64,000 nucleotides of DNA from an uncultured Dehalococcoidaceae bacterium (GTDB lineage: Bacteria > Chloroflexota > Dehalococcoidia > Dehalococcoidales > RBG-16-60-22): contig CAZLEY010000006.1 in NCBI GenBank assembly GCA_964558675.1, positions 15,043-79,042 of the forward strand, read 5' to 3'. Position 1 is the first letter of the stretch; every line of letters begins with the position of its first letter. The notes under the pieces were generated by a model. The model was not told the origin of the DNA and ran no database searches. It saw only the letters and a list, made by a program, of their open reading frames with translations. Shown piece after piece: positions 15,097 through 38,871 of this stretch. A program made the position numbers and the translations under genes.

Positions 15097-15453
15097 TCAG
15101 GGAGATGTTTGTGTTACGGTGCCATTAGCGGTAAATGTATACATGCATCCTGACTTTATCCACCCCCCATTCAGGCTCAGATAGTCCGTTAGCACCAGCG
15201 ACGGCGTATCGTTAGTCTGAACCTGGCTCATGTCCGCCGTAGGACCAACCGGCTTTAAAGCTCCGTTAAGGCTATCGGATAACATCTCTACCACGGCCGT
15301 CTGGATATTATGAAGTTCAGAATCGTAGGATTCAATCTTACCTTCATTAACCAGCTTACCGATATTGGGGATAGCTACCGCGGAGAGACTACTCAACATA
15401 GCCACAACCACCAAAGCCTCGAGAAAATAGCCTATTCCTTGCCTGTTTTGCAT
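15097..15453 (-). CDS. Pilin-like protein with atypical prepilin leader
   Basis: MQNRQGIGYFLEALVVVAMLSSLSAVAIPNIGKLVNEGKIESYDSELHNIQTAVVEML parallels the major pilin at 18256 (..LPNVTGLAGEGQTEAAKAELVTVQTAMDTMM). However, the Glu sits at +4 or +6 from either candidate Gly cleavage site instead of +5. Confidence 0.55.
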   Translation of the reverse strand: MQNRQGIGYFLEALVVVAMLSSLSAVAIPNIGKLVNEGKIESYDSELHNIQTAVVEMLSDSLNGALKPVGPTADMSQVQTNDTPSLVLTDYLSLNGGWIKSGCMYTFTANGTVTQTSP

Positions 15454-15651
15454 ATTCCCGCCGTTCTGTACATTTAACGCAGTATGGTACTATTGTACTA
15501 GTCACTCTTACTACGCACATCTATACAAACAACTATTTTCACTAAGGGATATCCCCGAATTGATTTCAGAATGGGAGTGAACCCTTAAAAGAAATAGTGG
15601 TTTTTCTACTTTCCAGGCGTGTACAGGTATATTAAAGTTAATTTCGTAACG

Positions 15652-16038
15652 ATGGCAAAGAAAGCGCTGCTCATAGATAATACTGTATCACCCGTGACCA
15701 GCTCTCGGCTGTTAACCGGCGAGGGCTATAACATTGATACGGTGTATGATATTGATACAGGCCTGCAACGTTTGGATAACCGGGTCTATAACGTTATTAT
15801 CATAAAGGCAGGCCCCGAAGCTGAGAGCTGGCAGCTCTGTGAGGAAATCAGGCGTCTATCCGGTATACCTCTTATTGTCATAAGTATAAACGCCAGCGCG
15901 GATGCCTGCGTAAAGGCAATCAACGCTGGCGCCGATTATTTTCTGAGAAAGCCTCTCGGGCCACTGGAGTTTAGAGCCAGGGTAAATTCGCTCATTCAAC
16001 GCACATCACAAAAGCCACCGGTACCTGCCGTCGCCTAG
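15652..16038 (+). CDS. Receiver-like (pseudo-receiver) domain protein lacking the phospho-acceptor Asp
   Basis: Aligns along its length with the receiver protein at 38470 (IPLIVIS.., GADYFLRKPL..EF.ARV). The acidic pair is DN, and the phospho-acceptor position reads VIIIKAG (Lys instead of Asp). Start placed at ATG 15652 (MAKKALLID); the track start is GTG 15619. Confidence 0.6.
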   Translation: MAKKALLIDNTVSPVTSSRLLTGEGYNIDTVYDIDTGLQRLDNRVYNVIIIKAGPEAESWQLCEEIRRLSGIPLIVISINASADACVKAINAGADYFLRKPLGPLEFRARVNSLIQRTSQKPPVPAVA

Positions 16039-16292
16039 CGCCTTAACCAGCACAATTCACAGATACCACGGACTGCATTCCCGCATCATCCATCATTTAA
16101 CAGAGCTTGCTTAATTGCATTAACTCTGCTATTTTGAGGATGTTCGGGGATATAGCCAGCCTTCCGGAATAGCTGCCGAATCTTACTGTTAATAATCTGG
16201 TCTACTATTGACGAAGCCGCCAGTAGCCTGTTCAAGCTGATTGAACATACGAGAGAACCGGCTGCCCCGATTAAGAACTATTATTTGTCAAC

Positions 16293-16931
16293 ATGGTTGT
16301 CACGTTGATTATCAAAAAACTGGTGGTAGGGTCACTTTCAGCTAACTGCTACGTCGTCGGCTCGGAGGCTACGGGAGAAGGCATGGTAATCGACCCCGGA
16401 GGCAATGCCCAAGACATTGTTAATGCTATTATTGATTCGGGGCTTGATATCAAGATTATTGTGCTTACCCATGGTCACTCCGACCATATCGCTGCCTTAT
16501 ACGATATCCAGGACAGGACCGGTGCCGAGGTAGCCATTCACGCTGAAGACGCCGACTTCCTTCATGGCCGGGGTTCTTTCAGTACCATGTTCGGTATTTC
16601 CTATAAAACCCCCGAGCCGCCCGACAGGCTGCTCCGTGAAGGAGATGTGATAGACATAGGCAGTCTGCAGTTTTCGGTACTGCATACACCGGGTCATACC
16701 CCCGGCAGTATTTGCCTCCTTACTGGCGATAAGGTGTTTACCGGAGACACTCTTTTTTATCGCGGCATCGGTACCACCCTGATGCCCGGCAGCAGCCGCC
16801 GCCAGCTCATAGACAGTATCCATGCCAAGCTGATGGTGCTACCGGACAGCACCATCATATATCCCGGGCACGGTAGAGAGACTACTATCGGCGCCGAGCG
16901 TAAGAACAATCCGTACGTACGCGGCTGGTAG
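16293..16931 (+). CDS. MBL-fold metallo-hydrolase (glyoxalase II-like)
   Basis: LTHGHSDHI metal motif, ANCYVV N-terminus, HTPGHTPGS. 212 aa. Confidence 0.8.
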   Translation: MVVTLIIKKLVVGSLSANCYVVGSEATGEGMVIDPGGNAQDIVNAIIDSGLDIKIIVLTHGHSDHIAALYDIQDRTGAEVAIHAEDADFLHGRGSFSTMFGISYKTPEPPDRLLREGDVIDIGSLQFSVLHTPGHTPGSICLLTGDKVFTGDTLFYRGIGTTLMPGSSRRQLIDSIHAKLMVLPDSTIIYPGHGRETTIGAERKNNPYVRGW

Positions 16932-17318
16932 CTCTGACCAGTAAACCATAACTGTTCATTTAACCCCCCACCGTATAACCTTTCCACAGCACTATTTACT
17001 ACATATCCTATCAACCGTACAAGTCCATTTCTATTCGGCCTGCCCGGCGAACCAACGTCGGTAAGGCGGCTGCCATATGGATACTATCACGCACCGATTC
17101 TCTCTTCCGGGCACATATTGAAGTGTGACTTTTTTGTTAGAGTTCGCCCACAATTTGTGATTTGCCTGTAACCGAACAGGACTAGAGTAACCCCAGAGCA
17201 TCCGTTAATTCAATTAATCATGTAAACAACGTAATGAACCTGAGGGAATATAAATAAGGGAACCCAACACACCAGTGCAGGTAAGGATCGAGCGCCAGTA
17301 CATCCAGGGAGGTGCAAA

Positions 17319-17534
17319 TTGAAAGCAAGATTTGAAATACCATACCCGGAATATCTCACGACCGGTGCTGTTGCCAGGCACTGTGGGGTAAGCAAAGTAA
17401 CAGTACTGCGATGGATTGAAAAAGGCAATCTGACAGCTTTCAGGCTTCCCGGAGGCCAAAACCGAATACACCGGGACGATTTCTACACTTTTGCGGCCAA
17501 GCATAGCATACCTATTAGAAGAACTCATAATTAA
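17319..17534 (+). CDS. Small helix-turn-helix DNA-binding protein (excisionase/MerR-superfamily type)
   Basis: 71 aa. LTTGAVARHCGVSKVTVLRWIEKGNLTAFRLPGGQNRIHRDDF. TTG start 4 nt after a GGGAGGTG SD. Paralogue of 17882-18106. Confidence 0.7.
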   Translation: MKARFEIPYPEYLTTGAVARHCGVSKVTVLRWIEKGNLTAFRLPGGQNRIHRDDFYTFAAKHSIPIRRTHN

Positions 17535-17720
17535 TGTCAACCGGCATTACCGCTGCCAATCAGCTTCTGGCTTGTCCCTGGAGTAATCATCTGGCGTTTA
17601 GTTATTAATAAAGTCTCCCGGAACCATCCACCTGCCTGCCAAACCTCTTATACCGCTAACAAAATTCCCGGCATTATTATTTTTCATTTCCATGAAAGCG
17701 CATTTAGCCAAACACCGCTT

Positions 17721-17767
17721 GTGATGTTTCTGTGAACTTTCATAAATCTTCTGTGATATTAATGTGA
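17721..17767 (+). promoter_or_regulatory. Four helically phased GTGA direct repeats (two as TTCTGTGA) upstream of the second HTH gene
   Basis: GTGA at 17721, 17732, 17753 and 17764 (spacings 11/21/11 bp). TTCTGTGA occurs at 17728-17735 and 17749-17756. The same 8-mer recurs at 38042-38049 and 32140-32147. Confidence 0.4.
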
Positions 17768-17881
17768 TTTAGCCCCAATATACTTCAAATGTACCAAGCA
17801 CTGCTAGCAACGATTATTTTGACAGTTCCGATTTTTCGACCAGGCAACCGATAAGGCAACCAAGTAAAAGGAGTAATAAGT

Positions 17882-18106
17882 TTGCAGAACGAATCTGAAC
17901 AGTGGATTCCTGAATATATCACTGTTGGTTTTATTGCCAAGCGTTGCGGTGTTAGCAATACGACTGTATTGCGGTGGATTACCACCGGGCAGCTACCGGC
18001 TTTCAGACTTCCCGGCGGTCATTACCGAATAGGGACGGAGAATTTCTCCGAATTTCTGACAAAATACAGCATGCCTGTACCAAACATATATATTGAAAAC
18101 CAGTAA
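17882..18106 (+). CDS. Small helix-turn-helix DNA-binding protein (excisionase/MerR-superfamily type), paralogue of 17319
   Basis: 74 aa. ITVGFIAKRCGVSNTTVLRWITTGQLPAFRLPGGHYRIGTENF. TTG start 9 nt after an AAAGGAG SD. Confidence 0.7.
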   Translation: MQNESEQWIPEYITVGFIAKRCGVSNTTVLRWITTGQLPAFRLPGGHYRIGTENFSEFLTKYSMPVPNIYIENQ

Positions 18107-18255
18107 AAAACACAGCAACAAGCAACATATGTAAAAACGATAACAGTGAGGTACAGGGAGATGATGTAACAAAAATATAACAACCGGTTTAGAAACTTAC
18201 AAAGAGGTGAACGATGAAAGCATTAAATACCCAAAACATTTCAGGAGGTGAAATT

Positions 18256-18621
18256 ATGCGTACGTTTTTGAAGAGAATACACCGAGAAAGTAAAGGCTTT
18301 ACCCTGGTAGAACTGCTTATCGTGGTCGCTATTCTGGGGGTACTGGCGGCGGTAGTCCTGCCCAATGTTACCGGGCTTGCCGGTGAGGGGCAGACCGAAG
18401 CTGCCAAGGCCGAGCTGGTAACTGTCCAGACAGCCATGGACACGATGATGGCAAAGACAGCTAAAACCTCAGTTACGGCCACCTCGGCAACCAGCAATAT
18501 GTCGGCATTCCCCACCGGTAACGTGCTGTACCCAACCTACCTGAGGACGGCGACAACCAAGGGTACATATTCCTGCAGCACTACCGGACTGGTGACACAG
18601 GCAACCACCGGTTATGAGTAG
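18256..18621 (+). CDS. pilA: Type IV pilin (prepilin-type N-terminal cleavage/methylation domain); likely the major pilin
   Basis: MRTFLKRIHRESKG/FTLVELLIVVAILGVLAAVVLPN is the canonical G/FTLxE motif. Start set to ATG 18256, 6 nt after an AGGAGGTG SD; the track start at 18214 is upstream of the SD. Confidence 0.85.
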   Translation: MRTFLKRIHRESKGFTLVELLIVVAILGVLAAVVLPNVTGLAGEGQTEAAKAELVTVQTAMDTMMAKTAKTSVTATSATSNMSAFPTGNVLYPTYLRTATTKGTYSCSTTGLVTQATTGYE

Positions 18622-18806
18622 ACTACCGGCTAAAAATACCAAGTAGGTACTGTTCAGGTATCAGGGAGACAGAAGTGGTCAGGTTCCTGGCTTAGCCATA
18701 CCTTGTTAGCAAGCAAGGTGTGGCAACAGGCGAGAAGTACCGAAGTTAATCAGCGACATGATTAGCTGAAATATAGTGTGGTCTTAGCACCAGACAAGGG
18801 CGAGTA

Positions 18807-23254: not shown

Positions 23255-26224
23255 ATGGAAGATAAAACCATTAATGTCTTGCTTATCGAAGACAACCCTG
23301 ATGATGCCGAGTTGATACGCAGGAAACTGACTAAATCCGTAAACAGACAGTTTACGGTAACAGCTGTAATAAGTTTGAAAGACGGCCTGGCAGAGCTATC
23401 CACCAGTTCGCCTGACCTGATTCTATCGGACCTGGGTCTGCCAGACAGTCACGGACTTGATACGGTCACCAAAGTATTGCAGATGGCGCCCAATATCCCT
23501 CTGGTAGTGTTAAGCGGCTTCGATGACGAAGCTGTAGCCATCAAGGCAGTTCAGCTCGGCGCACAGGACTATCTCGTGAAAGGGCAGATGGATAGCAGCC
23601 AGATAGAGCGCTCCCTTTTCTATGCCATTGAACGGTCCCGGCTGCAGGGGGAACTTGAGCAGCATACAGAAGAACTGAAGAAAATCCAGGCCAATCTTTT
23701 TAAAATCCTGGACAAGAACGCCGATGCCATTATTGTTGTCAGCAAGGAAAAGCAACCACTCTTCATTAACCCGGCCGCGGAATCCCTCTTCAGGCGTAAA
23801 AAGAAAGATTTACTGAATAAACCATTTGCTTTTTCACTTAAGGGAGGCAAGACATCAGAGATTGAAATTAAGTATGACGACGGCGAAATAACCGTAGCCG
23901 AAATGCGCGTGGTAGATATTAACTGGGAGGGTGAACCCGCCTACCTGGCATCACTGCGTGATGTTACCGAGCGTAAGAAGGCTGGGAAGCTCATCCGGCA
24001 GCAAAAGGAATTCTTGAGCAATGTATTTGAGTCTATCACTCAACCCTTCTATGTTGTAGATGCCAATGATTATAGTATTCAAATGGCGAATAAAGCCACG
24101 CGATTTGATAGTTCAGCAGAAGCTAAGAACTGCTATACCGTTGTCCATAATAAAGACAAGCCGTGTGCCGGTGAAGGCTATGTTTGCCCACTTGAAGAAG
24201 TAAAACGTACCAAAAAACCTGTGGTTGTGGAGCATACCCATACCGATGAAGAGGGCAATATAAGAAGCCTGGAAGTACACGGCTACCCTCTTTTTGATAC
24301 CGAAGGAAATGTCGTCCAGATGATAGGGCATTGTTTGGATATCACCGAGCGCAAGCAGGCTGAGAATGCACTGCGAGAGTCAGAGGAAAAGTTCTCCAAA
24401 GCCTTCCGTTCCAGCCCTGACATGATTGCTATCACTACGGTTAAGGAAGGCAGGTTTGTTGAAGTTAATGATAGTTTCACCAATACCACGGGCTATACGC
24501 GTGAAGAGGTGACTGGCCGTAATTCAGATGAGATAAATATCTGGGCAAAGGCAGAGGACCGCGCCAGGATGGTACAGATACTGAAGGAACAAGGCAGAGT
24601 CTACCAGGAAGAATTTCAGTTCCGTACGAAGTCAGGTGAGGTACGTTTGTGGCTTTTCTCAGCGGAACAGATTAATATCGGCAACGAACCATGCCTCATC
24701 TCCATGACCATAGATATCACCGAACGAAAGCAGGCTGAAGAGGCGCTTCGCTTCTCGGATGCCGCTTTCAAGTCTATCCACGAGAGTGTCATCGCCATAG
24801 ACACGGAATACACCATTACACACTGGAATGAAATCAGTGAACAGATTTACGGTGTCAAAGCCTCAGAGGCGATTGGCAAGAATCTCCTGAGTGTTATTGA
24901 GATAGTGGAAAACTACCCTGGAGAAAACGAAGAGCGCTTCAATAACCTTGAGATCAGCGGCTATCACCAGGAGGAGCAACTGCATCGGACAAAGCACGGC
25001 GAGGTGTGGGTTGATGTAAGTTTTCAGGCGATAGAGGGAAACGGTAAACGATACGGATGGGTGTCTCTGGCAACGGCCATAACCCAGCGTAAGCTGGCGG
25101 AAGAGGCATTGAAACGGAGCGAGGAAAAATACCGTGAACTCATCAGTACCTCTAAAGACGGAATAATATCCGTTGACCTACAGATGAGGGTCATCATATG
25201 GAACCAGGGAGCCGAAAAAATATATGGCTATACGGAAAAAGAGATGCTCGGTCAATCAATTATGAAGGTTATCCCCGAAAGAGACAGAGATAAGACGAAA
25301 AAGCTGCTGGCCCGCTTAAGCGATCCCAAATCAGTTAATTCCACGTACAGGGTAGTTGAAGGTGAAGGCCTGAGGAAAGACATGACCGAGGTTCCTATCG
25401 AGCTCTCATTATCATCAAGAAAAGCTGAAGATACGTGTATCGTGACAGCCATCATAAGAGATATTACCGAACGTAAAGAGGCCGAGGAAAAACTGAGGGA
25501 AATAGACAAGATGAAATCTGAATTCCTCTCCAACGTCTCACACGAGCTGCGCACGCCACTACAGTCAATCGGTGGTTTTACCAAGCTAATCCTCGAAGGT
25601 AAAGTACCTGACTTGGCAACCCAGCAAGAATTCCTGCAAATTATAGATAGGGAGAGCCAGCAACTCGGCGTCCTTATTAACAGTCTGCTGGATATGTCAC
25701 GCCTTGAGTCCGGCCATTTTGAGATAAACAAGAGGCTCCTGCCGATAAGGGATACTATCGTCGATTCCATACAGATATTCCATAGTCTGGCCCGGGACAA
25801 GGACGTCGAACTCAGCGAAGAAATACCACCCGTACTACCTGAGATAGAGATAGATGCCGAACGACTGAGGCAAGTGGTCATCAACCTGCTCAGCAACGCC
25901 ATCAAATTCAGCGACCCCGGAGGCAGTGTCAAAGCCAGAGTAGAGAGCCGAAACGGAGAGCTGCTGTTTCAGGTCAGCGATAAGGGTGTCGGCATAAACG
26001 AGGAATCCATGCCGCACCTCTTTGAAAGGTTTTACAGAGCCGAAGATAAGCTGGCCAGGGGCGGCACCGGACTGGGACTCTATATATGCAGGCAGATTAT
26101 CGAGGCACATGGTGGGCATATCTGGGCGGAGAGCGAAATAGGTAAAGGTAGCACTTTTAGTTTTACCTTGCCCCTGAATGGCAAAGGAGGAAACGGTCAT
26201 GCAAAAGAAAATCCTAGTAATTGA
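23255..26224 (+). CDS. Hybrid sensor kinase: N-terminal receiver, multiple PAS, HisKA, HATPase_c
   Basis: 989 aa. Receiver ([37 protein letters not shown]). At least four PAS regions. H-box [19 protein letters not shown], plus [18 protein letters not shown]. Confidence 0.9.
24347..24730 (+). repeat. PAS module copy 4 of 5
   Basis: [60 protein letters not shown]...[11 protein letters not shown]. Confidence 0.8.
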
Positions 26225-26606
26225 GGACGACCCGGCTACATCAAGGCTAGTAGATTATTCACTCCGGCACGAAGGTTACCAGGTGTTCACGGCTTCAAAC
26301 GGATTGGATGGGATAAGGAAAGCGCACAATGAAATACCGGACCTTATCATTCTGGATGTGATGCTACCGGGTATAGATGGCTTCGAAATCTGCCACCAGC
26401 TGCGGTCTGAGCCTGATACCAATAAATTACCCATTCTTATGTTCTCAGCCAAAGCTCAGGAAATAGACAAGAATACCGGTCTGAAAGTAGGCGCCGACGA
26501 TTATCTGTCCAAACCCGCTGCCCCGGCTGACATAGTTAGCCATGTAGAGGCTCTGCTGGCAAAGAAGACACACGCAGCAACAGACCAGGAGAAAGTGAGT
26601 GGATAA
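26199..26606 (+). CDS. Single-domain response regulator, overlapping the pilB start
   Basis: [42 protein letters not shown] 26199 lies 7 nt after an AAAGGAGGA SD (track start 26178). It overlaps the kinase end by 26 nt, and its stop overlaps the pilB GTG start. Confidence 0.85.
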
Positions 26607-28308
26607 AGAAAATACCAAATCCCTCACCCCGGATAAATCTAACAAAAAGAGTTTGGGCGAGATGCTGGTTGAGGAGAACCTGCTCACCCGGGAGCAACTG
26701 GAGAGCGCATTAGCGCTGCAGCGACAGCAGGGAGGTAAACTTAACGACATTCTGATAAAACAAGGCCTGGTTAAACCTGAGACACTGGCCATCATGCTCA
26801 GTATCCAGCTAAACTTACCGTTAATAGACCTGAAGAGACACACCATACAGCCTCAGGCACTCCAGCTTATCCCCGAAGACATGGCCCGGAAACACGCCCT
26901 GATACCGATGGACATCGTTAATGACTCACTGATGGTGGTTATGGCTGACCCGGAGGACATACATACTATTGAAGACCTCAAGGCTCAGGCGAAGATGAGG
27001 GTTGAGGTATCGCTTGGCGTCCGCTCCGATATTGAACGCGCTATTAACATTAACTACAGGTCAAGCGGCGCCATTGAGAACAATGTAAGCAAGTTTGCGC
27101 CAGCCTCAGAAGATAAACCAGATGACACCCCGATACTTACGGCCAGGACACCGATTGCCGAGACCATTGACCTGCTTGTCGCCCAGGCAGTCAGGGACAG
27201 GGCATCGGATGTTCACATCGAACCACAGGAAGACAGGCTCCGGATTCGCTACAGGATTGATGGCATCCTGCATGACATGTTTTCCTTCCCACTCAGTATC
27301 CACATGCCGCTGGTATCACGCATAAAAATTCTGGCCGAGATGGACATCTCAGAACAGAGGCGCCCTCAGGACGGGCAATTCTCCGTAAAACTTGGCGATA
27401 ATGAAGTTGATATCCGCGTCGCCACTATGGAGACGCCCTGCGGAGAGAGAGTAACACTGCGGATTCTGGACAAGTCTCTGGCTCTATTCACTTTATCGGA
27501 ACTCGGGTTTTTACCCGGTATTCTTAAGACATACAAGGCGATGCTGAAGAGCCCTATCGGCATGATACTGGTGAGCGGCCCGACAGGTTCCGGCAAGACG
27601 ACCACACTTTACGCATCAATAAACGAGCTGGACAGGAATGAGCGCAATATCATGACGATTGAAGACCCCATTGAATACAACTTTATGGATATCAACCAGA
27701 CTCAGGTTAATAATAAAGCCGGGATTACCTTTGCCAGTGGCCTCAGGGCAATCATGCGCCACGACCCCGATGTCATCCTGGTCGGTGAGATACGGGACAC
27801 AGACACGGTGACAACCGCCATCCAATCCGCCCTCACCGGTCATCTGGTACTTTCCTCGATTCATGCCAATGATACCGTCGGTGTGCTTTCTCGACTGATG
27901 GACCTGGGCGTCGAACCGGCCTCAATATCATCAACATTGATTGGAGTCGTTGCCCAGCGCATGGTCCGGCGTATCTGCCCGAACTGCCGTGCCCCTTACC
28001 AACCAACCGAAGAAGAGATGCAGGCGTTCAACAAGGAAATTGAGCGGGAGACCCCCACATTTTATTCTGGAAGCGGATGTAACCTCTGTGCCAATACCGG
28101 CTACCGGGGTCGAACGGGTATCTTCGAATTCCTGATAATGAGTGAGGATATAAGGAAGATGCTAAGGAGCAATGCCGGCTCCAGTGAAATTAGAACACAG
28201 GCGATTAGCGAGGGAATGGTAACGATGAAACGTGACGGGATGCTCAAGGTAAAAGAGGGCATTACATCAATAAGTGAAGTGCTGCGAAATGTATTTTCTA
28301 TTAACTAA
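26599..28308 (+). CDS. pilB: Type IV pilus assembly ATPase (GspE/PilB family)
   Basis: 569 aa. T2SSE N-terminal domain (LGEMLVEENLLTREQLESALALQ...LIPMD), Walker A GPTGSGKTTTLYA, Asp/His boxes, and a tetracysteine motif (CPNC...CNLC). Confidence 0.9.
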   Translation: MDKENTKSLTPDKSNKKSLGEMLVEENLLTREQLESALALQRQQGGKLNDILIKQGLVKPETLAIMLSIQLNLPLIDLKRHTIQPQALQLIPEDMARKHALIPMDIVNDSLMVVMADPEDIHTIEDLKAQAKMRVEVSLGVRSDIERAININYRSSGAIENNVSKFAPASEDKPDDTPILTARTPIAETIDLLVAQAVRDRASDVHIEPQEDRLRIRYRIDGILHDMFSFPLSIHMPLVSRIKILAEMDISEQRRPQDGQFSVKLGDNEVDIRVATMETPCGERVTLRILDKSLALFTLSELGFLPGILKTYKAMLKSPIGMILVSGPTGSGKTTTLYASINELDRNERNIMTIEDPIEYNFMDINQTQVNNKAGITFASGLRAIMRHDPDVILVGEIRDTDTVTTAIQSALTGHLVLSSIHANDTVGVLSRLMDLGVEPASISSTLIGVVAQRMVRRICPNCRAPYQPTEEEMQAFNKEIERETPTFYSGSGCNLCANTGYRGRTGIFEFLIMSEDIRKMLRSNAGSSEIRTQAISEGMVTMKRDGMLKVKEGITSISEVLRNVFSIN

Positions 28309-28382: not shown

Positions 28383-29594
28383 ATGTCATACAGGTATAGA
28401 GCCTATACAGTCGATAAGAAAATCGTTCAGGGCACGATTGAAGTCGCCTCGGAAAGCATGGCGGAGGGCACCCTGTACAGGGCCGGCTATCAGCATATCC
28501 TCAGTCTTGAGGAAACGCCGCCGGGGACGAATATTAAAGGAATGATACCGACCCTCTTTGGAGTTAAAACCCAGGATGTGATTGACTTCTCCAACCAGCT
28601 AGCCACCCTGACTGAGTCCGGCATCAGCATATATACATCGCTGCAGCTACTTAAGGGACAGGCTTCCAAGGTGGCTCTTAAAGACGTCATTAATGGATTA
28701 ATCGAGGAAATCCAGGTAGGCACCTCTTTCTCCCAGGCACTCAGCTACCATCCTGAGGTGTTTTCGAATACCTACTGCCAGGTGATAAGGGCAAGCGAAC
28801 AGTCAGGCAGTCTGGAATTAGGGCTGAGGCAGGCCGCCAGCTACATGGAGAAACAGACAGTCACATCCCAGAAAATTAAACGCGCCATGTTCTATCCTGC
28901 CTTTGTGTTACTTATGGCCATCGGCGTAACTATTTTGCTCATCACGGTCGCCCTGCCGCCACTTGTCGACCTGTTTTCCTCGATGGACGTGAAACTGCCC
29001 TGGATGACACAGATGCTTCTTTCCATCAGTGGCTTCGTTCTCGACCATACTCTCTATATAATCATGGGATTGCTTATTCTCATTCTATTAACCATCGGCC
29101 TTCTGAGATTACCATCAGTAAAGCTGGCCAAAGACAGGCTAATGCTGCAAATACCACTCATAGGCGCCATTAACATTGAGCGCGGTGTGCAACATTTCTG
29201 TCAGACAGCTTCAATGCTGCTGAAAGCAGGCCTGCACCTGCCGAATGTAATGGACATCTCCATCCAAACAAACAAAAACCGGATTATCCGCGAGTCTTTA
29301 AGGAATGTTAAAGATAAGCTGGTACAGGGAGAGGGTCTATCACAGCCACTGGCCGAGGTTGAGCTTTTTCCTCCACTCCTGGCAGAGATGGTAGTAGTGG
29401 GAGAGAAGACCGGTTCTATGGACTCTACCCTCGCCACGCTCGCTGACTATTACGAACAGAGGGTTGACCACAGGATTGAAATCCTTACTTCGATGATAGA
29501 GCCAATATTGACCTTAATCATCGGGATAGTAGTTATATTCATCGCTCTTTCCATGATAACGCCGCTATATTCAATACTGAGGTCCATGCACTAA
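28383..29594 (+). CDS. pilC: Type IV pilus / T2SS platform protein (GspF/PilC family)
   Basis: 403 aa with two GspF-type repeats (FSNQLATLTESGISIYTSL and FCQTASMLLKAGLHLPNVM) and 3 TM segments. Confidence 0.9.
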   Translation: MSYRYRAYTVDKKIVQGTIEVASESMAEGTLYRAGYQHILSLEETPPGTNIKGMIPTLFGVKTQDVIDFSNQLATLTESGISIYTSLQLLKGQASKVALKDVINGLIEEIQVGTSFSQALSYHPEVFSNTYCQVIRASEQSGSLELGLRQAASYMEKQTVTSQKIKRAMFYPAFVLLMAIGVTILLITVALPPLVDLFSSMDVKLPWMTQMLLSISGFVLDHTLYIIMGLLILILLTIGLLRLPSVKLAKDRLMLQIPLIGAINIERGVQHFCQTASMLLKAGLHLPNVMDISIQTNKNRIIRESLRNVKDKLVQGEGLSQPLAEVELFPPLLAEMVVVGEKTGSMDSTLATLADYYEQRVDHRIEILTSMIEPILTLIIGIVVIFIALSMITPLYSILRSMH

Positions 29595-30018: not shown

Positions 30019-30473
30019 TGACTGCTAATGAACGTGGTTTTACCATGGTTGAGCTGGTAATGGCGATGGCCGCTACCGGGCTCATTATAAGTTTTCTGGG
30101 AACAAGCATATACCAGATATTCACCGTTACCGAATACGGCAATGACAGGCTTATCGCCATGCATGAGCTGCAAAATGCCTCTCACTGGTTCAGCCTTGAT
30201 GGTCAGGGTGCGAAATCAGCTGCCGCAGGCAGCGAGCTGGTTCTCACGCAAACAGATAACTCAACGATTACCTATTCATTAACGGGGATGGAATTACGAC
30301 GCACCGCTGGTGGCGGCCAGATGACCCTGGCCAAGAATATTACCAGTGCCGATTTTTCCATGGGTAACCGCGTCATTACCATGTCCCTGACTTCATCCCC
30401 TGAGGGACGCGACAGTGTAAGTGAACAGGGAACCTACAGGGTTTATCTGAGACCAGCCGAGGAAGAGGAATAA
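30015..30473 (+). CDS. Minor pilin / pseudopilin (PulJ/PilW-like)
   Basis: ANERG/FTMVELVMAMAATGLII, with Glu at +5. ATGA overlap with the upstream gene. 152 aa. Confidence 0.75.
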   Translation: MMTANERGFTMVELVMAMAATGLIISFLGTSIYQIFTVTEYGNDRLIAMHELQNASHWFSLDGQGAKSAAAGSELVLTQTDNSTITYSLTGMELRRTAGGGQMTLAKNITSADFSMGNRVITMSLTSSPEGRDSVSEQGTYRVYLRPAEEEE

Positions 30474-31996
30474 TGAACAGCGAGAAGGGACAGGCCCTGC
30501 CAATGGCCATGATGGCACTTGCTCTCGGCACTCTGGTGATAACGCCTTTTCTCAGTCATGCCGGCAGCGGCCTTATCGGTTCACTCGCCTATGGCGAAGC
30601 AATCATCCACCAGAGCAGCTGTGACGCCGGCGTCGAGCACGCCATCTGGAATTTGACCAGAGGTAGCCTGGCCGAGCAGATACCCGAACCGGGCGATGAG
30701 GTCACCTATCAGCTTGGCGAAGAACTCAATGGCTTAACCACCAGCATTACCGTAACCGCGAACGTTACCGGGGACGGAGGTGGCTTGGCTGGTGAGATCG
30801 GGGATACCGTGATAGATACTCTCGAGTTTGATACTGCTTACGGAAATATGCCCGACATCATACATATTTCCGGTGACATCTACGCTATAGCCTACCGTGG
30901 CAATGGTAACGACGGCTTCTTAAAGACAGTTGAAATAGCTTCCGATGGTGACATCACCAACAGCGTGGTAGACAGCTTAGAGTTTGATACCAGTTACGGA
31001 ATCTACGCGGACATTCTCCACGTCTCCGGCAACATATACGTCATAGCCTACCAGGGAAATGGCAACGACGGTTTCTTAAAGACCGTGGAGATAACCACTG
31101 ATGGTGAAATTACCAACAGCGTGATAGATACCCTGGAGTTTGATAACAGAAACGGGAGAGAACCGGTTATTACTCACGTAGCAAGCAATATTTATGCTAT
31201 CGCTTACCGGGGTAATGGCGGCGATGGCTTCATCAAGACTATAGAGATAGCTACTGATGGTGAAATTACCAACAGCGTGATAGATACCCTGGAATACGAT
31301 ACCAGTAACGGTTATTACCCGGATATCAGTTATATCTCCGGTGACGTTTACGCCATTGTCTACCGGGGTAATGGCGGCGATGGCTTCATCAAGACTGTGG
31401 AGATAGCTTCGGATGGTGAAATTACTAACAGCGTGATAGATACCCTGGAATTTGATACCAGTAACTGTTATTACCCGGATATTGTTGATGTGTCCGGTGA
31501 CATTTATACTATTGCCTACCAGGGAAACGGCAATGATGGCTTCCTGAAGACCGTGGAAATAGCTACTGATGGTGAAATTACTAACAGCGTGATAGATACC
31601 CTGGAGTTTGATACAGGCAACGGTAGAACACCGGATATCATCAATATCTCCGGTGATATCTATGCTATTTCTTATCGGGGCAACGGGAGTGACGGCTATC
31701 TAATAACAGTTGAGATAGCCACAGATGGAGATATCAACAATACTGTAATTGATACCCTGGAATTTGATACATCTTATGGCAATTTTCCGGATATCATCCA
31801 GATTTCCGGCGGCGTTTATGCCATTGCTTATTGCGGACCAAGGTCAGACGGTTTCGTTAAGACTGTAGAGATATCCACGAATGCGGGAACCTCCGCTGCC
31901 TACGAAATTTCATCTACCGCCGGAGACAGGACTATCCGTGCTTTCGTTAATACCGCCAACACGACCGCTTCTATTTTGGCGTGGCAAGTAGAATAA
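30473..31996 (+). CDS. PilX-like pseudopilin N-terminus fused to seven 52-aa tandem repeats (predicted beta-propeller); putative pilus-associated tip/adhesin protein
   Basis: 507 aa. N-terminus MNSEKGQALPMAMMALALGTLVITPFL (no Glu5, as in PilX/GspK) followed by CDAGVEHAIWNL. Residues 113-468 are 7 copies of VIDTLEFDT..G..PDI..ISGDIYAIAYRGNG.DGF.KTVEIA.DGEITNS. TAATG overlap with the preceding minor pilin gene. Confidence 0.6.
   Translation: MNSEKGQALPMAMMALALGTLVITPFLSHAGSGLIGSLAYGEAIIHQSSCDAGVEHAIWNLTRGSLAEQIPEPGDEVTYQLGEELNGLTTSITVTANVTGDGGGLAGEIGDTVIDTLEFDTAYGNMPDIIHISGDIYAIAYRGNGNDGFLKTVEIASDGDITNSVVDSLEFDTSYGIYADILHVSGNIYVIAYQGNGNDGFLKTVEITTDGEITNSVIDTLEFDNRNGREPVITHVASNIYAIAYRGNGGDGFIKTIEIATDGEITNSVIDTLEYDTSNGYYPDISYISGDVYAIVYRGNGGDGFIKTVEIASDGEITNSVIDTLEFDTSNCYYPDIVDVSGDIYTIAYQGNGNDGFLKTVEIATDGEITNSVIDTLEFDTGNGRTPDIINISGDIYAISYRGNGSDGYLITVEIATDGDINNTVIDTLEFDTSYGNFPDIIQISGGVYAIAYCGPRSDGFVKTVEISTNAGTSAAYEISSTAGDRTIRAFVNTANTTASILAWQVE
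30809..31876 (+). repeat. In-frame tandem repeat array, 156-bp period, about 6.8 copies
   Basis: Unit boundaries fall at 30809 + n*156. The identical 30-mer ggtaatggcggcgatggcttcatcaagact occurs at 31211 and 31367 (exactly one period apart). Long shared strings such as gatggtgaaatta(c/t)(c/t)aacagcgtgatagataccctgga recur across units. Confidence 0.9.
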
Positions 31997-34260: not shown

Positions 34261-34333
34261 GGAGGGAATACGCTCCAGGCTAAAGGATATGCGTGGAGGA
34301 CATTCGGCATATTTATGAAATCTTTATGGACTC

Positions 34334-34362: not shown

Positions 34363-34442
34363 ATTTTTTATAATAGTAATTGATAATAATATATAGTATT
34401 GAAGTATACCGAGTATACTCAGGTAGTACCAGGGAGGTCTGC

Positions 34443-34655
34443 ATGGCTGTGTCAATAAATGGAAATACGTACTATAGAACTGCAGAGGTCTGCCAGATGG
34501 TCGGTATAAGCAAGAATACCTTATTTCGATGGCTTAAAGCAGGCTACCCGGGTACCAATTCGCGCCGGGACAGGAGAGGATGGCGGCTATTTACCGGAGA
34601 CGATATTAATAAACTGAAAGCCGAGGCTGAACTGATAATCGAAGCGGAGCAATAA
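34443..34655 (+). CDS. MerR-superfamily helix-turn-helix protein (small)
   Basis: MAVSINGNTYYRTAEVCQMVGISKNTLFRWLKAGY...RGWRLFTGDDINKLK. ATG 34443 lies 6 nt after a GGGAGG SD; the track start at 34380 is in AT-rich non-coding-looking sequence. Confidence 0.7.
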   Translation: MAVSINGNTYYRTAEVCQMVGISKNTLFRWLKAGYPGTNSRRDRRGWRLFTGDDINKLKAEAELIIEAEQ

Positions 34656-34715
34656 CCTTATAGCAGGAATAAGCTGGGGAGATAATTAAATGATTGCCAA
34701 CTGTGAGCAGATTCG

Positions 34716-37160
34716 ATGAGCGCTATAGGAAAAGAGCTTAGAAAATCGGGTGTTGACATTATCGGTGATGTTCCCTGGGACACACACCTCTGTTTATTCT
34801 ACCAGACCAGCGAGGACATGCTTAACCTGCTGGTGCCCTACTTTAAAGCCGGGTTAAAAAATAACGAATTTTGCCTCTGGGTTACTTCGGAGCCTTTAGA
34901 TAAAGAGTCTGTCGAAAAGGCGTTAAGAAAGTCCATCAGTAATTTTGATAAATACCTGGAAAAGGGACAAGTAGAGATAATCCCTCATACCGAATGGTAT
35001 CTCAAGGGGGGTACCCTTGACCTGCAACGAGTTACCGAGGGCTGGTCAAACAAACTAAACCAGGCCCTCGCCAGCGGTTACGACGGCATGAGGATGTCAG
35101 CCAATACTTCCTGGCTTGAAAAAAAGGACTGGCCGCAATTCATGGAATATGTAAAGGCAGGGCAGGATACCATCGGCAAGGGCAACTGGCTCTCTATATG
35201 CGCTTATTCTCTTAATAAGTGTGGGGCACCTGAAATCATAGACGTGGTCAGTAACCACCAGTTCGCTCTCATCAGGCGAGGTGACAAATGGGATACCATC
35301 GAGAGATACGAGCGCAACCGGATGAAGAATGAACTGGACAGGCGCGTGAAAGAGCTCAGGTGTCTCTACGATGTTGCCAACATCAGCGGAGCACCGGATA
35401 TCACGCTATATCAAAGGTTTGAAGAGATAACCAATCTGCTCCCCAGAGCCTTTCAATATCCCGATATTGCCTTTGCCAGAATTGCCATCAATGGGCGTGA
35501 GTTCAAGTCAGGTAACTGTAGCAAGACCAAGTGGCGGATGTCCGCAGACATTATCGTGCGTGGAGAGAAAGTAGGGACTGTAGAAGTCGGCTATGTGAAA
35601 GCGCCATCTAATACCGACAACAACCTTTTCTCGAAAGAAGAAAGGCTATTGCTTGACGCCGTCGCCGAGCGCCTTGGGATAATTGCGGAACACAGGCAGA
35701 TAGAAGAGGCCTTGCGGGAATCCGAGGAAAAATTCTCGAAGGCCTTTCACTCAAGCCCGGCTATCTTCTCCATTTCCACGTTAAAAGATGGGAAATTCAT
35801 TGAAGTTAATGATAGTTATACTAATTTTACCGGTTACTCCCGTGAAGAGACTATCGGCCGCACCTCGATTGAAACAGGCAACTGGATGTTTGCCGAGAAC
35901 CGTAATAGAATGCTGAAGTTACTGAAGGAAGAAGGCAGAGTTCGAAATCTGGAAGTTGAATCACGCCATAAATCAGGCGAAGTACGCATATCCCAGCTTT
36001 CCGCCGAGCTTATCAACATCGGCGAGGAACCGTGTGTTATTGCCGTTGTAAATGACATTACCGAGCGAAAACAGTCCGAAGAGCTGCTTAAGACAGTTTC
36101 CTTCAATTCACCGCTGGGCATCTATATTGTGCAGGATGATAAGCTTCAATATACCAACCCGCAATTTCAGAAGCTTACTGGCTACAGCGAAAAGGAGTTG
36201 TTGGGCAGAGACCTCCTCAGCCTTGTCGCTATTGAAGACAGCGACGCGGTAAAGTCAAGCACGGTATTCACTCTTCAGGAAAAGAACCCCTACCCGTGCG
36301 AATACAGGATTCTCAACAAGAATGGTCAGATAAAATGGGTCCTGCAGACCGTTTCCCCTATCCACTACCAGGGCAGAGAAGCAATACTCGGAAACCTCAT
36401 GGACATCACCGAACGCAAGTATCTTGAGAGGAAAGTCATTGAATATGAAGAACTGAGCAAAATGAAGAGTGACCTCCTGGCCACGGTCTCGCACGAACTC
36501 CGCACCCCGCTGGCGACAATAAAAGGCTACTCCACCATGATGATTGACTACTTCTCCAAGCTCACTTCTCATGAAAAAAGGGATTATCTAAAATCCATAG
36601 ACCATTCAACAGACCGGCTGGCTATACTTGTCGACAACCTGCTGGACACGTCGCGAATGGAGGCCGGACTGCTGAAACTGGAAAAGGCTCCAACCAGCGT
36701 ATCCAGACTTATCCGTGGCGTTGCTACCGAAGCGGGAATCAGAGACAATGAACATCACATCGTTACCATGCTGTCAAAGAAACTGCCCAAGCTAAACATC
36801 GACGCCAAACGTATTCGGCAGGTTCTGGACAACCTTATTGATAACGCCATCAAATACTCTCCAAAAGGAACGGAAGTAGTAATATCAACCCGACAATCCA
36901 GCCAGGAGCTCCTCGTCAGCATTGCCGACCAGGGCTCAGGTATACCTGCGGAGGAGTTGACCAATATCTTCGACCGGATGTACCGGATCGAGCAAAGGCT
37001 GTCTTCAGGCGTAGAGGGTATCGGGCTGGGACTATATATATGCCGGCGGCTGGTAGAAGCGCACGGTGGCCACATCTGGGTAGAGAGTAAACTGGGAAAA
37101 GGAAGTACGGTCTACTTCACCCTTCCTATAGATAATGCGGCCCAGATAGTAAAACAATGA
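34716..37160 (+). CDS. Cytoplasmic sensor histidine kinase: MEDS domain, GAF-like, two PAS, HisKA, HATPase_c
   Basis: 814 aa with no TM segment. The N-terminal THLCLFYQTSEDMLNLLVPYFKAGLKNNEFCLWV...LSICAYSLNKC..EIIDVVSNHQFALI fits the MEDS pattern. H-box [19 protein letters not shown], plus [18 protein letters not shown]. Confidence 0.85.
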   Translation: MSAIGKELRKSGVDIIGDVPWDTHLCLFYQTSEDMLNLLVPYFKAGLKNNEFCLWVTSEPLDKESVEKALRKSISNFDKYLEKGQVEIIPHTEWYLKGGTLDLQRVTEGWSNKLNQALASGYDGMRMSANTSWLEKKDWPQFMEYVKAGQDTIGKGNWLSICAYSLNKCGAPEIIDVVSNHQFALIRRGDKWDTIERYERNRMKNELDRRVKELRCLYDVANISGAPDITLYQRFEEITNLLPRAFQYPDIAFARIAINGREFKSGNCSKTKWRMSADIIVRGEKVGTVEVGYVKAPSNTDNNLFSKEERLLLDAVAERLGIIAEHRQIEEALRESEEKFSKAFHSSPAIFSISTLKDGKFIEVNDSYTNFTGYSREETIGRTSIETGNWMFAENRNRMLKLLKEEGRVRNLEVESRHKSGEVRISQLSAELINIGEEPCVIAVVNDITERKQSEELLKTVSFNSPLGIYIVQDDKLQYTNPQFQKLTGYSEKELLGRDLLSLVAIEDSDAVKSSTVFTLQEKNPYPCEYRILNKNGQIKWVLQTVSPIHYQGREAILGNLMDITERKYLERKVIEYEELSKMKSDLLATVSHELRTPLATIKGYSTMMIDYFSKLTSHEKRDYLKSIDHSTDRLAILVDNLLDTSRMEAGLLKLEKAPTSVSRLIRGVATEAGIRDNEHHIVTMLSKKLPKLNIDAKRIRQVLDNLIDNAIKYSPKGTEVVISTRQSSQELLVSIADQGSGIPAEELTNIFDRMYRIEQRLSSGVEGIGLGLYICRRLVEAHGGHIWVESKLGKGSTVYFTLPIDNAAQIVKQ
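35688..36071 (+). repeat. PAS module copy 5 of 5
   Basis: [60 protein letters not shown]...IAVVNDITERK. Same 128-codon length as copies 1-4. Confidence 0.75.
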
Positions 37161-37230
37161 AAGAAAAATCAACTAAAGACGAAAGTCGTTGTTGAGGACG
37201 TAGTCCTTCACCAGAAAGAGAGGTGTTATC

Positions 37231-37929
37231 ATGTCCTCAAAAAAAGCATTAGTTCTGGTTGTCGATGATGACGTTAGGATGTTAAGAATGATGAAGCGTA
37301 TGCTTGAGCTTGAGGGTTTTGATACGCTTATAGCTAATAGCGGCGAAGCCGCCCTGAAAGTCTTCGAGAAGGAAAGCCCAGACCTGGTATTGCTGGACAT
37401 CATGATGCCGGATATGAACGGCTATATAGTATGCCAGCATATCCGCGAATTTTCACAGGTACCTATCATAATGGTTACCGCTATGGGTGATGACAAGGAG
37501 AAGGTTGAAGGGTTAGATATTGGAGCTGATGACTACGTAACCAAACCCTTCTCCGCAAGTGAGCTGGCCGCGCGAGTCAGGGCGGTTTTGCGCCGTATCG
37601 GCCCCCAGGATGAGCCCCCCGGTGCCATATTCCAATATAAGGACCTGGTAATAGACTTCGCGTCACGCAGGGTCACCCTCAGCGGTCAAGAGCTGATACT
37701 CACCTCTACGGAATACAGGTTGTTGTCTTACGTCTCCCGGAATGCCGGCCGTGTCGTAACTCCAGACCAATTACTGGATAAGGTGTGGGGTGAAGAATAT
37801 ATCGGCGCCCCACATCTCCTCCAGGTAAATATCGCCCGCCTCAGGAAAAAGCTGGGAGATGACGCCAAGCATCCCACCTATATACTGACCAGACCTGGTA
37901 TAGGGTATATCATGTCAAAGCCTGTATGA
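37231..37929 (+). CDS. OmpR/PhoB-family response regulator (receiver + winged-helix DNA-binding domain)
   Basis: VLVVDDDVRML, LVLLDIMMPDMNG, MVTAMG, DYVTKPF. C-terminal LTSTEYRLLSYVSRNAGRVVTPDQLLDKVWG...RPGIGY. Confidence 0.9.
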   Translation: MSSKKALVLVVDDDVRMLRMMKRMLELEGFDTLIANSGEAALKVFEKESPDLVLLDIMMPDMNGYIVCQHIREFSQVPIIMVTAMGDDKEKVEGLDIGADDYVTKPFSASELAARVRAVLRRIGPQDEPPGAIFQYKDLVIDFASRRVTLSGQELILTSTEYRLLSYVSRNAGRVVTPDQLLDKVWGEEYIGAPHLLQVNIARLRKKLGDDAKHPTYILTRPGIGYIMSKPV

Positions 37930-37969
37930 TTATGTAGCGGCTATCATGCAGCAAAGGCAATAGCATTAA

Positions 37970-38004
37970 GGGAGTCTTCCAAATACGGGAAGGCTCTCTT
38001 TTTA
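37970..38004 (+). terminator. Rho-independent terminator after the OmpR-family gene
   Basis: Stem GGAGTCTTCC (37971-37980) / GGAAGGCTCT (37988-37997), 8 of 10 bp paired, with a 7-nt loop, followed by CTTTTT. Confidence 0.6.
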
Positions 38005-38469
38005 CTCGGTGTGACTGCCAAAGCCTTAATACTTTTGATTTTTCTGTGAGGATTTAGCTGTCCATTATGCCACCAGGGTGCGTAATCCTGAACCAACCGT
38101 GACTATTTTGTGAGTCTTTAGAACCCATTTTTGACGCTGTTGTGAGCCGGCTTGAGTAAGGTTAGCAGTGTGAGGTGGCGAAAATGGAAACAGCACTAAT
38201 ATGGAAAGACGCCAAGTCCTTCAGGCAACATATCGCTGCTATGAGGGTATTTAGCCAGTCACACCCCAGTAATCCGCAGGGCAGATACAACACACTCAAG
38301 GGCATACCGAATCCATGCAACATCCATCCTACGGGTAAATCAGCAGGAACCAGCGGCTTCATCACCACCAGAGGCAAGCCAGCTCTTGCCCCCATATGGG
38401 AGATAGAATTGCCCAGAGGCTCGCAGAACTGAAAGGCGACGATTTCTGGTATCAAGATAAGGGGACACT

Positions 38470-38871
38470 TTGTCGGCAATGAATGACCGCCAACGCATTA
38501 TGGTGGTAGATGATAACCAGGAGATGCTGAACCTGCTTAATCGCACCCTGGAACTGGAAGGCTTCGAACCCGTTGTCGTCGCCGATGGCAACTCAGCACT
38601 GACACTGCTGGACGAAATGGAACCAGACCTAGTTATTCTGGACTCAATCATGCCTGGGCTTGACAGTCTTCTGATGCTTGACCTGATACGAGGGCGTTCC
38701 AACATTCCTATTATCATGCTTACCGAAGAATATGATATGGAAACACTACGAAGGGTTTTGACTCTCGGCGCCGACGATTATATTCGAAAGCCCTTCAGCA
38801 CACGGGAATTCATGGCCCGCATCCGGGCGAAGCTGAGACGCACCCAACCAAAAGCCCGGACGCCTCAATAA
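38470..38871 (+). CDS. Single-domain response regulator (receiver only)
   Basis: RIMVVDDNQEML, LVILDSIMPGLDS, IIMLTEE, DYIRKPF. TTG start 7 nt after an AAGGGGA SD (alternative ATG at 38479). Confidence 0.85.
   Translation: MSAMNDRQRIMVVDDNQEMLNLLNRTLELEGFEPVVVADGNSALTLLDEMEPDLVILDSIMPGLDSLLMLDLIRGRSNIPIIMLTEEYDMETLRRVLTLGADDYIRKPFSTREFMARIRAKLRRTQPKARTPQ

Follow-up and report, generated by a model that had tools for sequence, protein, structure and literature searches.

A type IV pilus locus with embedded signalling genes

Dehalococcoidales are abundant subsurface bacteria, mostly uncultivated and related to organohalide respirers, and to our knowledge almost nothing is known of their surface organelles or signalling. 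Here we describe a locus from an uncultured Dehalococcoidaceae bacterium in which the genes of a type IV pilus are interleaved with those of a signalling network. It lies in a 64-kb stretch of contig CAZLEY010000006.1 (the window, whose numbering is used throughout); the region analysed was 15097-38871, with assignments by Pfam and NCBIfam. A preliminary description of the sequence had counted three histidine kinases (HK1 to HK3), six receiver (REC) domains and three small helix-turn-helix (HTH) genes, all of which were found among the open reading frames (ORFs). Every gene of the region is on the plus strand except a single divergent gene at the left edge.

The major pilin gene pilA (18256..18621) starts where that description had placed it, with the Shine-Dalgarno (SD) sequence GGAGGTG before its ATG, and its product has the leader ...SKG/FTLVELL and matches N_methyl and TIGR02532. 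Between pilA and the gene for the extension ATPase PilB (26599..28308; T2SSE E 3e-129, with an MshEN domain) lies a block of kinase, receiver, kinase and receiver genes, as had been noticed. From HK1 through pilB the genes share a strand and either overlap or lie no more than 35 nucleotides (nt) apart, so the signalling genes are not tied to unrelated neighbours. HK1 (18807-22742, 1311 amino acids (aa)) has two transmembrane (TM) segments read from the sequence, an extracytoplasmic 4HB-like domain, HAMP, PAS, GAF, four further PAS domains, HisKA and HATPase; its translation has intact H, N, G1 and G2 boxes, and the H box is of the SHDLRSPL type. It is followed by RECa (22755-23219), a stand-alone receiver of the phytochrome-associated Rcp1/RcpA/RcpB type, and by the soluble HK2 (23255-26224, 989 aa), in which an N-terminal Response_reg domain precedes four PAS domains, HisKA and HATPase. 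The best match of this receiver in the PDB was 6oap, a 'dual sensor histidine kinase', with LvrB also matched, and HK2 is predicted to be a receiver-gated kinase. The stand-alone receiver RECb (26199..26606) completes the block. Its start is most likely 26199, which has the SD AAGGAGG and agrees with the public gene call, and its stop overlaps the pilB start by 8 nt.

The third kinase, HK3 (34716-37160, 814 aa), lies 3' of the operon together with an OmpR-type regulator and a further receiver, as previously reported. HK3 is soluble and consists of MEDS, two PAS domains, HisKA and HATPase; its MEDS region has no solved relative by sequence. The regulator (37231-37929) joins a receiver (Response_reg E 1.4e-32) to a winged-helix Trans_reg_C domain (E 1.1e-23), the composition of the OmpR/PhoB family, and is the only one of the six receivers with a DNA-binding output, as had been claimed. 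HTH_8 and Sigma54_activat are absent from all six by Pfam. RECc (38470-38871) is the closest paralog of the OmpR receiver (42% identity), and both RECb and RECc are OmpR/PhoB-type receivers lacking a DNA-binding domain. Five receivers (RECa, the HK2 N-terminus, RECb, OmpR and RECc) keep the D/D/T(S)/K residues, in line with the earlier count of Asp-containing receivers. The sixth is a pseudo-receiver (15619..16038, or from 15652 as its orthologs suggest; Response_reg 43.5 bits) with Lys at the phospho-Asp site, and its orthologs also lack the phospho-Asp (6/6). The three kinases have one PAS module in common (…SEEKFSKAF…DITERK…; 54-73% amino-acid identity), present in three copies in HK1 (19623-19997 and 21261-22010) and again in HK2 (24359-24733) and HK3 (35700-36074). 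Within related loci, the N-terminal motif of this module was seen in these kinases only.

The genes between pilB and HK3 encode the platform protein PilC (28383..29594; T2SSF), a first minor pilin (29617-30018; N_methyl), a second, ComGF-like minor pilin (30015-30473; ComGF and N_methyl matches), a 507-aa repeat protein (30473..31996), a PilO/T2SSM-like protein (32144-32734; T2SSM_b-like) and a PilM-PilN fusion (32737-34260; PilM_2 and PilN). T2SSE with MshEN, T2SSF, PilM_2 with PilN, the T2SSM_b-like domain and N_methyl together make up type IVa-like machinery in its monoderm form, and the cluster is a lineage-wide monoderm-type type IV pilus operon of Dehalococcoidales, with no secretin. The filament might instead be a competence pilus for DNA uptake or a secretion pseudopilus, with the circuit controlling that process. 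One minor pilin is indeed ComGF-like, PilB scores nearly equally against the GspE and PilB models (below the equivalog cut-off of both), and pilT was not found in the window. PilM-PilN and a PilO-like gene are nevertheless present, a PilT-type ATPase is encoded in the cluster of most relatives, and a lectin-like propeller on a pilin anchor favours adhesion; we regard a competence or secretion role as distinctly unlikely.

That propeller is the 507-aa protein. In its AlphaFold2 model (pLDDT 86), an N-terminal pilin-like helix is followed by a seven-bladed beta-propeller, the nearest folds being the Photorhabdus PLL/PHL (TM-score (TMt) ~0.73) and Chromobacterium CV39L lectins. The family has >1000 members, always annotated as hypothetical, and ranges from 238 to 516 aa across relatives. 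On the strength of this model, the protein is a candidate tip adhesin or lectin.

PilB residues 19-70 (26599-26810) match the MshE-type cyclic di-GMP motif (NF053729, 57 bits against a cut-off of 38), placing PilB by sequence among MshEN-type ATPases predicted to bind cyclic di-GMP. No GGDEF, EAL or HD-GYP protein was seen in the window when it was searched for their motifs.

At 18214-18258, in frame and 42 nt before the pilA start, there is a second SD and ATG that most relatives keep; they could serve as an alternative start that would lengthen the prepilin leader by 14 residues. No conserved promoter emerged when the region upstream of pilA was aligned across relatives, only this second SD and ATG. 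The spacer between pilA and HK1 (18622-18806) folds at -62.5 kcal/mol (z -3.5) and includes a 13-bp hairpin not followed by a U tract. The idea that it is a conserved attenuator was dropped because the fold is not kept in relatives, which have a median z of -0.2, with only 2/17 below -2.

Conservation and stepwise assembly of the signalling block

We collected PilB relatives as one genome per GTDB species with up to 10 kb on each side, giving 76 loci (labelled L with a number), and annotated them by phmmer over all six-frame ORFs with the window proteins and domains as queries. The ~60 closest relatives of PilB are, every one, from Dehalococcoidales or Dehalococcoidia metagenome-assembled genomes (MAGs); the window PilB is 93% identical to a protein of an 'uncultured Dehalococcoidaceae' MAG, and an identical protein also occurs on short contigs of metagenomic runs.

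The comparison, which had been proposed as a check on the linkage of the kinase and receiver block to pilA and pilB, was positive. The common order is [pseudo-REC, MBL], HTHa, HTHb, PilA, HK1, RECa, (REC-HK2), RECb, PilB, PilC and minor pilins, continuing with the propeller protein, PilO, PilMN, [PilT], HK3, OmpR and RECc (MBL being a metallo-beta-lactamase-fold hydrolase described below). It recurs in dozens of species and holds down to ~65% PilB identity, so the arrangement is far beyond chance. RECb abuts pilB in 46/57 Dehalococcoidales loci with at least 0.5 kb of flank (gap -44 to +31 nt, mode -8), and a kinase core lies upstream of RECb in 37/49 loci. Where at least 7 kb of flank was available, 22 of the 32 loci had the full HK1-RECa-(REC-HK2)-RECb block: 19 on a strict count, together with L022 (frameshifted), L034 (overlapping ORF calls) and L038 (two RECb copies). 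pilA lies directly upstream of HK1 wherever the flank extends that far, and the phospho-Asp of RECb is retained in its orthologs (n=60). The signalling genes are thus linked to the pilus genes across relatives and, in the window, are not joined to unrelated neighbours, the points on which the preliminary description had staked its reading.

The order is fixed but its content is not: HK1 and HK2 have between 0 and 6 PAS domains, MEDS and PilT are present or absent, and L038 has minimal kinases of 276 and 373 aa with no PAS domain at all. The varying PAS number per kinase suggests frequent domain duplication or exchange. In most relatives a PilT-type ATPase (~355 aa) is encoded between pilMN and HK3; in the window and its nearest relative, L003, this slot (34260-34716) is held by HTHc. 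HK1, RECa and the HK2 receiver co-occur, and the single-kinase variants L014, L047 and L043, checked by Pfam, lack all three; L028 looks like these variants by phmmer only.

When the architectures were mapped on a neighbour-joining PilB tree they were nested. In the most distant loci of Dehalococcoidales, pilB is not preceded by any signalling gene and pilA is downstream on the opposite strand. A second group has the order PilA, (HTHc), REC, PilB, a third stage has a single kinase and REC, and the crown group has the full block and HK3-OmpR-RECc. In the second group the receiver protein is often 380-392 aa long and combines the same receiver with a MinD/ParA-type ATPase (Pfam CbiA, AAA_31, ParA). 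This REC-MinD fusion family comprises >120 clusters, and some IMG records label its members CpaE. In two divergent metagenomic members (47-51% identity) the order is kinase, pilin, REC-MinD, PilB, PilC, PilMN, and REC-MinD overlaps pilB by 8 nt, as RECb does. The receiver of these proteins retains the phospho-Asp, and the ATPase domain matches MinD/FleN by sequence, with no specific match to the TadZ structure. Membership of TadZ is unsupported by sequence and, because the Asp is kept and the ATPase matches MinD/FleN only, we describe the REC-MinD proteins as TadZ-like in layout, not as TadZ family members. The window RECb has no ATPase domain.

Among distant Dehalococcoidales, two loci encode a 1156-aa PilB (L060 7632-11099, L061 1378-4845); in L060, Pfam places six MBG_2 (YGX-type) repeats before the MshEN and ATPase domains.

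A composite operator and its candidate binder

The two paralogous HTH genes that had been noted 5' of the operon are both preceded by TGTGA repeats, first seen in a k-mer count of intergenic regions. HTHa (17319-17534; HTH_17 E 1.3e-10) and HTHb (17882-18106; HTH_17 E 1.7e-9) encode small HTH_17/MerR-like proteins with 52% identity, the latter 150 nt upstream of pilA. We defined a single box as TGTGA-N6-TGTGA with at most one mismatch, and a composite as TGTGA-N6-TGTGA-N16-TGTGA-N6-TGTGA with at most three mismatches in the 20 specified bases. The window has 11 single boxes against 2.8 expected (0/100 shuffles reach 11), and 7 of the 11 fall at three places, 17124/17156, 17720/17752 and 38034/38098/38130. 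In 1.08 Mb of related loci the composite matched 60 times, always on the coding strand and never on the other, compared with ~0.2 matches per shuffle. All of these matches are at four fixed promoter positions inside the pilus cluster: before HTHa (11 loci), before HTHb (19 loci) and at two sites downstream of the OmpR gene, one before a 177-aa secreted-protein gene and one before the small ORF that precedes RECc.

In the window, operator A (17124..17171; four TGTGA-type direct repeats) lies upstream of HTHa, operator B (17720..17767; a perfect composite) upstream of HTHb, and operator C (38098..38145; the same four-repeat geometry) upstream of ORF82 and RECc. Each has a -10-like hexamer 11 nt downstream (TAGAGT, TATACT and TAAGGT, respectively), and a conserved leader follows that of operator B. 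The last repeat is followed at 11 nt by a TAnnnT hexamer, so the proximal repeat pair appears to stand in for the -35 element. The repeats have an 11-nt periodicity, with pairs three helical turns apart (32-nt pitch); direct repeats with 11-nt periodicity are the geometry of pho boxes. Since the same operator is found at the HTH/pilA promoters and at ORF82-RECc, the HK3/OmpR module is tied to the pilin region.

The 82-aa product of ORF82 (38184-38432), directly upstream of RECc, had been passed over by the preliminary description, as had the operator at all three promoters. ORF82 is kept in at least six loci and called as a gene in public assemblies, and its C-terminus, PIWEIELP.GSQN, is invariant. 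It has no Pfam match, a word-indexed search gave only 4 homolog clusters, and its AlphaFold2 model (pLDDT 54) is too poor to judge as Hpt. In relatives, a gene for a 177-182-aa secreted protein with a signal peptide and no Pfam match lies between OmpR and the small ORF under its own operator (L007 19955-20494, L012 20269-20802). The window has lost this gene, and the half-operator at 38034..38049 is a relic of its promoter.

What binds the operator was judged from several lines of evidence. The OmpR-type protein is the favoured candidate, because the tandem sites have the geometry of its family, it is the only DNA-binding receiver, it was lost together with the boxes in one relative, and the same motif neighbours other OmpR operons. 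The relative is L044, in which HK3-OmpR-RECc is absent and the HTHb promoter has kept its -10 and leader and has no TGTGA boxes. The neighbours come from a metagenome-wide contig scan for the exact composite that gave at least 120 matches, of which 80 were retrieved. Some 12 of these 80 were orthologous pilus loci, with the operator before HTHc in L124 and L147, and ~10 lay no more than ~0.4 kb from operons of unrelated OmpR-family regulators or kinases. By sequence, the motif is enriched beside OmpR-family systems.

The small HTH proteins are a real alternative: HTHa and HTHb could bind the TGTGA operator as head-to-tail multimers, like BldC or Xis, and regulate their own genes. BldC-type proteins bind direct repeats, two of the three window sites precede HTH genes themselves, and the operator and the HTHa and HTHb genes arise together in the crown group. 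The HTH_17/MerR-like proteins also weakly resemble RacA and the small DNA-binding proteins 6ama/6amk, as seen in the PDB matches of HTHb. Against this, repeats of 11-nt period whose proximal pair takes over from the -35 are a classic arrangement of the OmpR/PhoB family; L044 retains HTHb and has lost both OmpR and the boxes; and the same array is also seen beside OmpR-family operons that are unrelated, on contigs lacking an HTH_17 gene. Other direct repeats in the leaders of the HTH genes are possibly the proteins' own sites. Binding by the HTH proteins is therefore a serious contender that we nevertheless consider unlikely, and OmpR is taken as the predicted binder below.

These other repeats were seen at all three small HTH genes. 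3' of its -10, each gene has two short direct repeats spaced by ~9 nt, and their sequence differs among the three: TTAAT..TTAAT (17200-17225; GTTAAy in relatives), CAAAy..CAAry (17785-17815) and AGTATAC..AGTATAC (34400-34420). These repeats may serve as the HTH proteins' own operators. The third gene, HTHc (34443-34655; alternative start 34380, with 34443 most likely), encodes a small MerR/HTH_17-type protein in the slot held by pilT in most relatives. A sigma-70-like promoter, TTTACA-18-TATAAT (34345-34374; 11/12 matches), precedes HTHc-HK3-OmpR and is the only near-consensus match in the region, which suggests that these genes form a separate transcription unit. Apart from it, generic promoter and terminator scans of the region were at chance level.

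A further possibility is that the signalling genes encode general regulators, act mainly on targets elsewhere and came to lie in the pilus operon through an accident of history. In these genomes kinases rich in PAS domains are common, relatives differ freely in PAS number, and the operator motif is found elsewhere in metagenomes. Linkage holds to ~65% PilB identity, however, while pilT, MEDS and PAS content change; RECb is translationally coupled to pilB; and all 60 operator sites of the related loci are inside this cluster. Accidental placement is, in our judgement, very improbable, and the cluster with its embedded signalling genes is very probably a dedicated pilus control circuit.

At the left edge, the pseudo-receiver and a divergent pilin-like gene stand 5' of the operon, as had been described. 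The pilin-like gene (15097..15453, minus strand, 118 aa) has a non-canonical leader, a weak ComGE-like NCBIfam match, no match in a Pfam scan and an ortholog at the equivalent position in L027. An MBL-fold hydrolase gene (16293..16931; Lactamase_B E 2.4e-31) is a conserved neighbour 5' of the HTH genes in >10 loci. Synteny in ~6 loci is the sole link of the pseudo-receiver, the hydrolase and the pilin-like gene to the system. Both flanks are unrelated to pili: a dehydrogenase, a SnoaL-like protein and a major facilitator superfamily transporter on the left, and a tripartite ATP-independent periplasmic (TRAP) transporter followed by a B12 operon on the right. A cobalamin riboswitch (41147-41295; Rfam RF00174, 42.6 bits) lies 5' of BtuF-like, FecCD and ATP-binding cassette transporter genes, CobD and CobS, and the genes behind it are a B12 uptake/salvage operon, which fits the known corrinoid dependence of this group. 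It was the sole Rfam match in the window, with none inside 15097-38871.

A proposed two-arm circuit and its known counterparts

The preliminary description had read the locus as a multi-input phosphorelay dedicated to the pilus. The linkage to the pilus stood (46/57 and 22/32 loci, as above); the phosphorelay did not. Since Pfam found no Hpt domain across 15097-38871 and the receiver of HK2 is N-terminal, the layout is not a strict phosphorelay and reads instead as three two-component modules, of which two probably form a stacked kinase cascade.

We propose that these modules form a circuit of two arms built into the pilus operon, one acting on the machine and the other on transcription, a reading that, from the sequence evidence at hand, we hold to be slightly more probable than not. 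In the first arm, HK1 would sense an extracytoplasmic cue through its 4HB-like and HAMP domains and cytoplasmic cues through PAS and GAF, and would phosphorylate both RECa and the N-terminal receiver of HK2. HK2 would add its own PAS inputs and phosphorylate RECb. Lacking an output domain and made in step with PilB through the 8-nt overlap, RECb may bind PilB or its platform and thereby switch or position pilus assembly. Precedents for such a target exist. The output-less response regulators EmvR and DrdR bind PilB and alter its ATPase activity (PMC11973254, PMC13507683), and PATAN-REC regulators of Synechocystis contact the PilB1 motor (bioRxiv 10.1101/2021.06.11.447907). In the second arm, HK3 (MEDS-PAS-PAS) would phosphorylate the OmpR-family regulator, two tandem dimers of which would bind the four-repeat operator at the -35 position of three promoters and activate HTHa, HTHb (probably with pilA behind it) and ORF82-RECc. 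RECc would in turn drain phosphate from HK3 as negative feedback.

The step from HK1 to both RECa and HK2 is suggested by the co-occurrence of the three domains and by their like alpha-1 consensus. In two-component systems, established work places the main specificity surface on the alpha-1 helix. The ortholog consensus of this helix reads EDNPDDVELTMRAFRKNN for RECa and EDNxDDAELIxRKLxKS for the HK2 receiver, both sharing EDNxDDxEL..R...K; that of OmpR, DDDIRMLRMMKRMLELE, groups with that of RECc, DDDxxMLxLLNRTLELEG, and RECb stands on its own. The alternative is three independent linear pairs, HK1-RECa, HK2-RECb and HK3-OmpR, with no cascade and with the HK2 receiver served by HK2 itself or by an unlinked kinase. 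A receiver does directly follow each kinase, and the HK2 receiver falls outside the RECa/Rcp1 subtype; assignment of RECa and the HK2 receiver to the same subtype was rejected. That the three domains co-occur and are jointly missing from the three Pfam-checked single-kinase variants argues for the cascade, as does the shared alpha-1 signature, and we consider independent pairs a fairly unlikely account of the block.

Several observations weigh against the two-arm circuit. RECa shares only 29% identity with the HK2 receiver and, with the difference in subtype, this makes a shared kinase uncertain. The MshE-type motif of PilB, above its curated cut-off, points to a possible further input that the kinases do not explain. 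No PilT homolog was found in the 64-kb window, and no A24 prepilin peptidase was found by motif search or among 10 ORFs scanned; either gene may lie elsewhere in the genome. The operator motif is not specific to the locus, as ~55 of the 80 retrieved metagenome matches have no recognisable neighbour. All relatives are MAGs, and an order conserved within one bacterial order could partly reflect shared ancestry and not selection.

The most detailed form of the proposal is a two-tier kinase cascade that ends in a RECb coupled to PilB and descended from a phosphorylatable TadZ-like REC-MinD protein, with OmpR driving, through the TGTGA operator, the pilin-region regulators and its own phosphate sink. 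That all of this holds, and that the design is new, is a tentative suggestion to which we give somewhat less than an even chance. No published description of the arrangement was found in literature searches. The locus provides a complete and testable wiring diagram in which three kinases and five active receivers are joined by a single operator and a single motor, and makes visible a stepwise addition of signalling layers to a pilus operon. It also links a TadZ-type REC-MinD architecture with a live phospho-acceptor to PilB-type machines; if the detailed proposal is correct, REC-MinD positioning proteins are not limited to Tad pili and can be controlled directly by a kinase. The operator can be used to find further members of the regulon, and the pilin-anchored propeller lectin hints at what the pili may bind. 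The chief interest lies in the conserved wiring, the phosphorylatable REC-MinD ancestor beside PilB and the operator.

The composition of the locus differs from the pilus regulators of Proteobacteria, as had been claimed. Pfam found no CheA, CheW, methyl-accepting chemotaxis protein (MCP), Hpt or Sigma54_activat domain in 15097-38871, and with no Hpt, CheA, MCP or sigma-54 regulator the system is neither Pil-Chp nor PilS/PilR. The second arm resembles PilS-PilR of Pseudomonas, Myxococcus and Geobacter in that a kinase and regulator are encoded in or beside the pilus cluster (pilSR and pilS2R2 are embedded in the M. xanthus pil cluster) and would here, too, control pilin transcription. PilR, however, is an NtrC-type sigma-54-dependent activator and PilS a six-TM kinase, whereas the regulator here is of the OmpR family, with pho-box-like direct repeats and a promoter with a sigma-70-type -10. 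In this respect it resembles the pho boxes of PhoB/PhoR and other OmpR-family tandem sites, in which 11-nt direct repeats abut the -10 and replace the -35; the TGTGA half-site and the two-pair layout with its 32-nt pitch are different, and no described regulon with them was found.

The first arm recalls Pil-Chp of Pseudomonas and Tax/Pix of Synechocystis, in which the motor or polarity of the pilus is the target of stand-alone CheY-like receivers; PilB1 is contacted by PixE and PixG (bioRxiv 10.1101/2021.06.11.447907; PMC11181946). Unlike those systems, the locus has no CheA, Hpt, CheW, MCP, CheR or CheB, its kinases are ordinary HisKA/HATPase enzymes, and its receiver gene shares a transcription unit with pilB. 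EmvR and DrdR of Xanthomonas provide the mechanism proposed for RECb, an output-less receiver modulating the PilB ATPase, but they are orphan genes of a diderm proteobacterium, not encoded with pilB and with no stacked kinase block. An N-terminal receiver before sensory and kinase domains, as in HK2, is known from receiver-gated kinases (the 6oap dual-sensor kinase; Leptospira LvrA/LvrB), which have no pilus link; in HK2 such gating is predicted. Cph1-Rcp1 pairs share the Rcp1/RcpA/RcpB family of RECa and the SHDLRSPL-type H box of HK1, but Pfam detected no PHY domain in HK1. The basal relatives resemble TadZ/CpaE of Tad pili in having a REC and MinD/ParA protein directly upstream of the secretion ATPase. 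In contrast to TadZ/CpaE, the receiver here keeps its phospho-Asp and adjoins its cognate kinase, the partner is a PilB-type ATPase with MshEN and not TadA, and the window protein, RECb, has lost the ATPase domain. By analogy, both arms would work like known pilus regulators, one through a regulator gene beside pilA and the other through output-less receivers acting on the motor.

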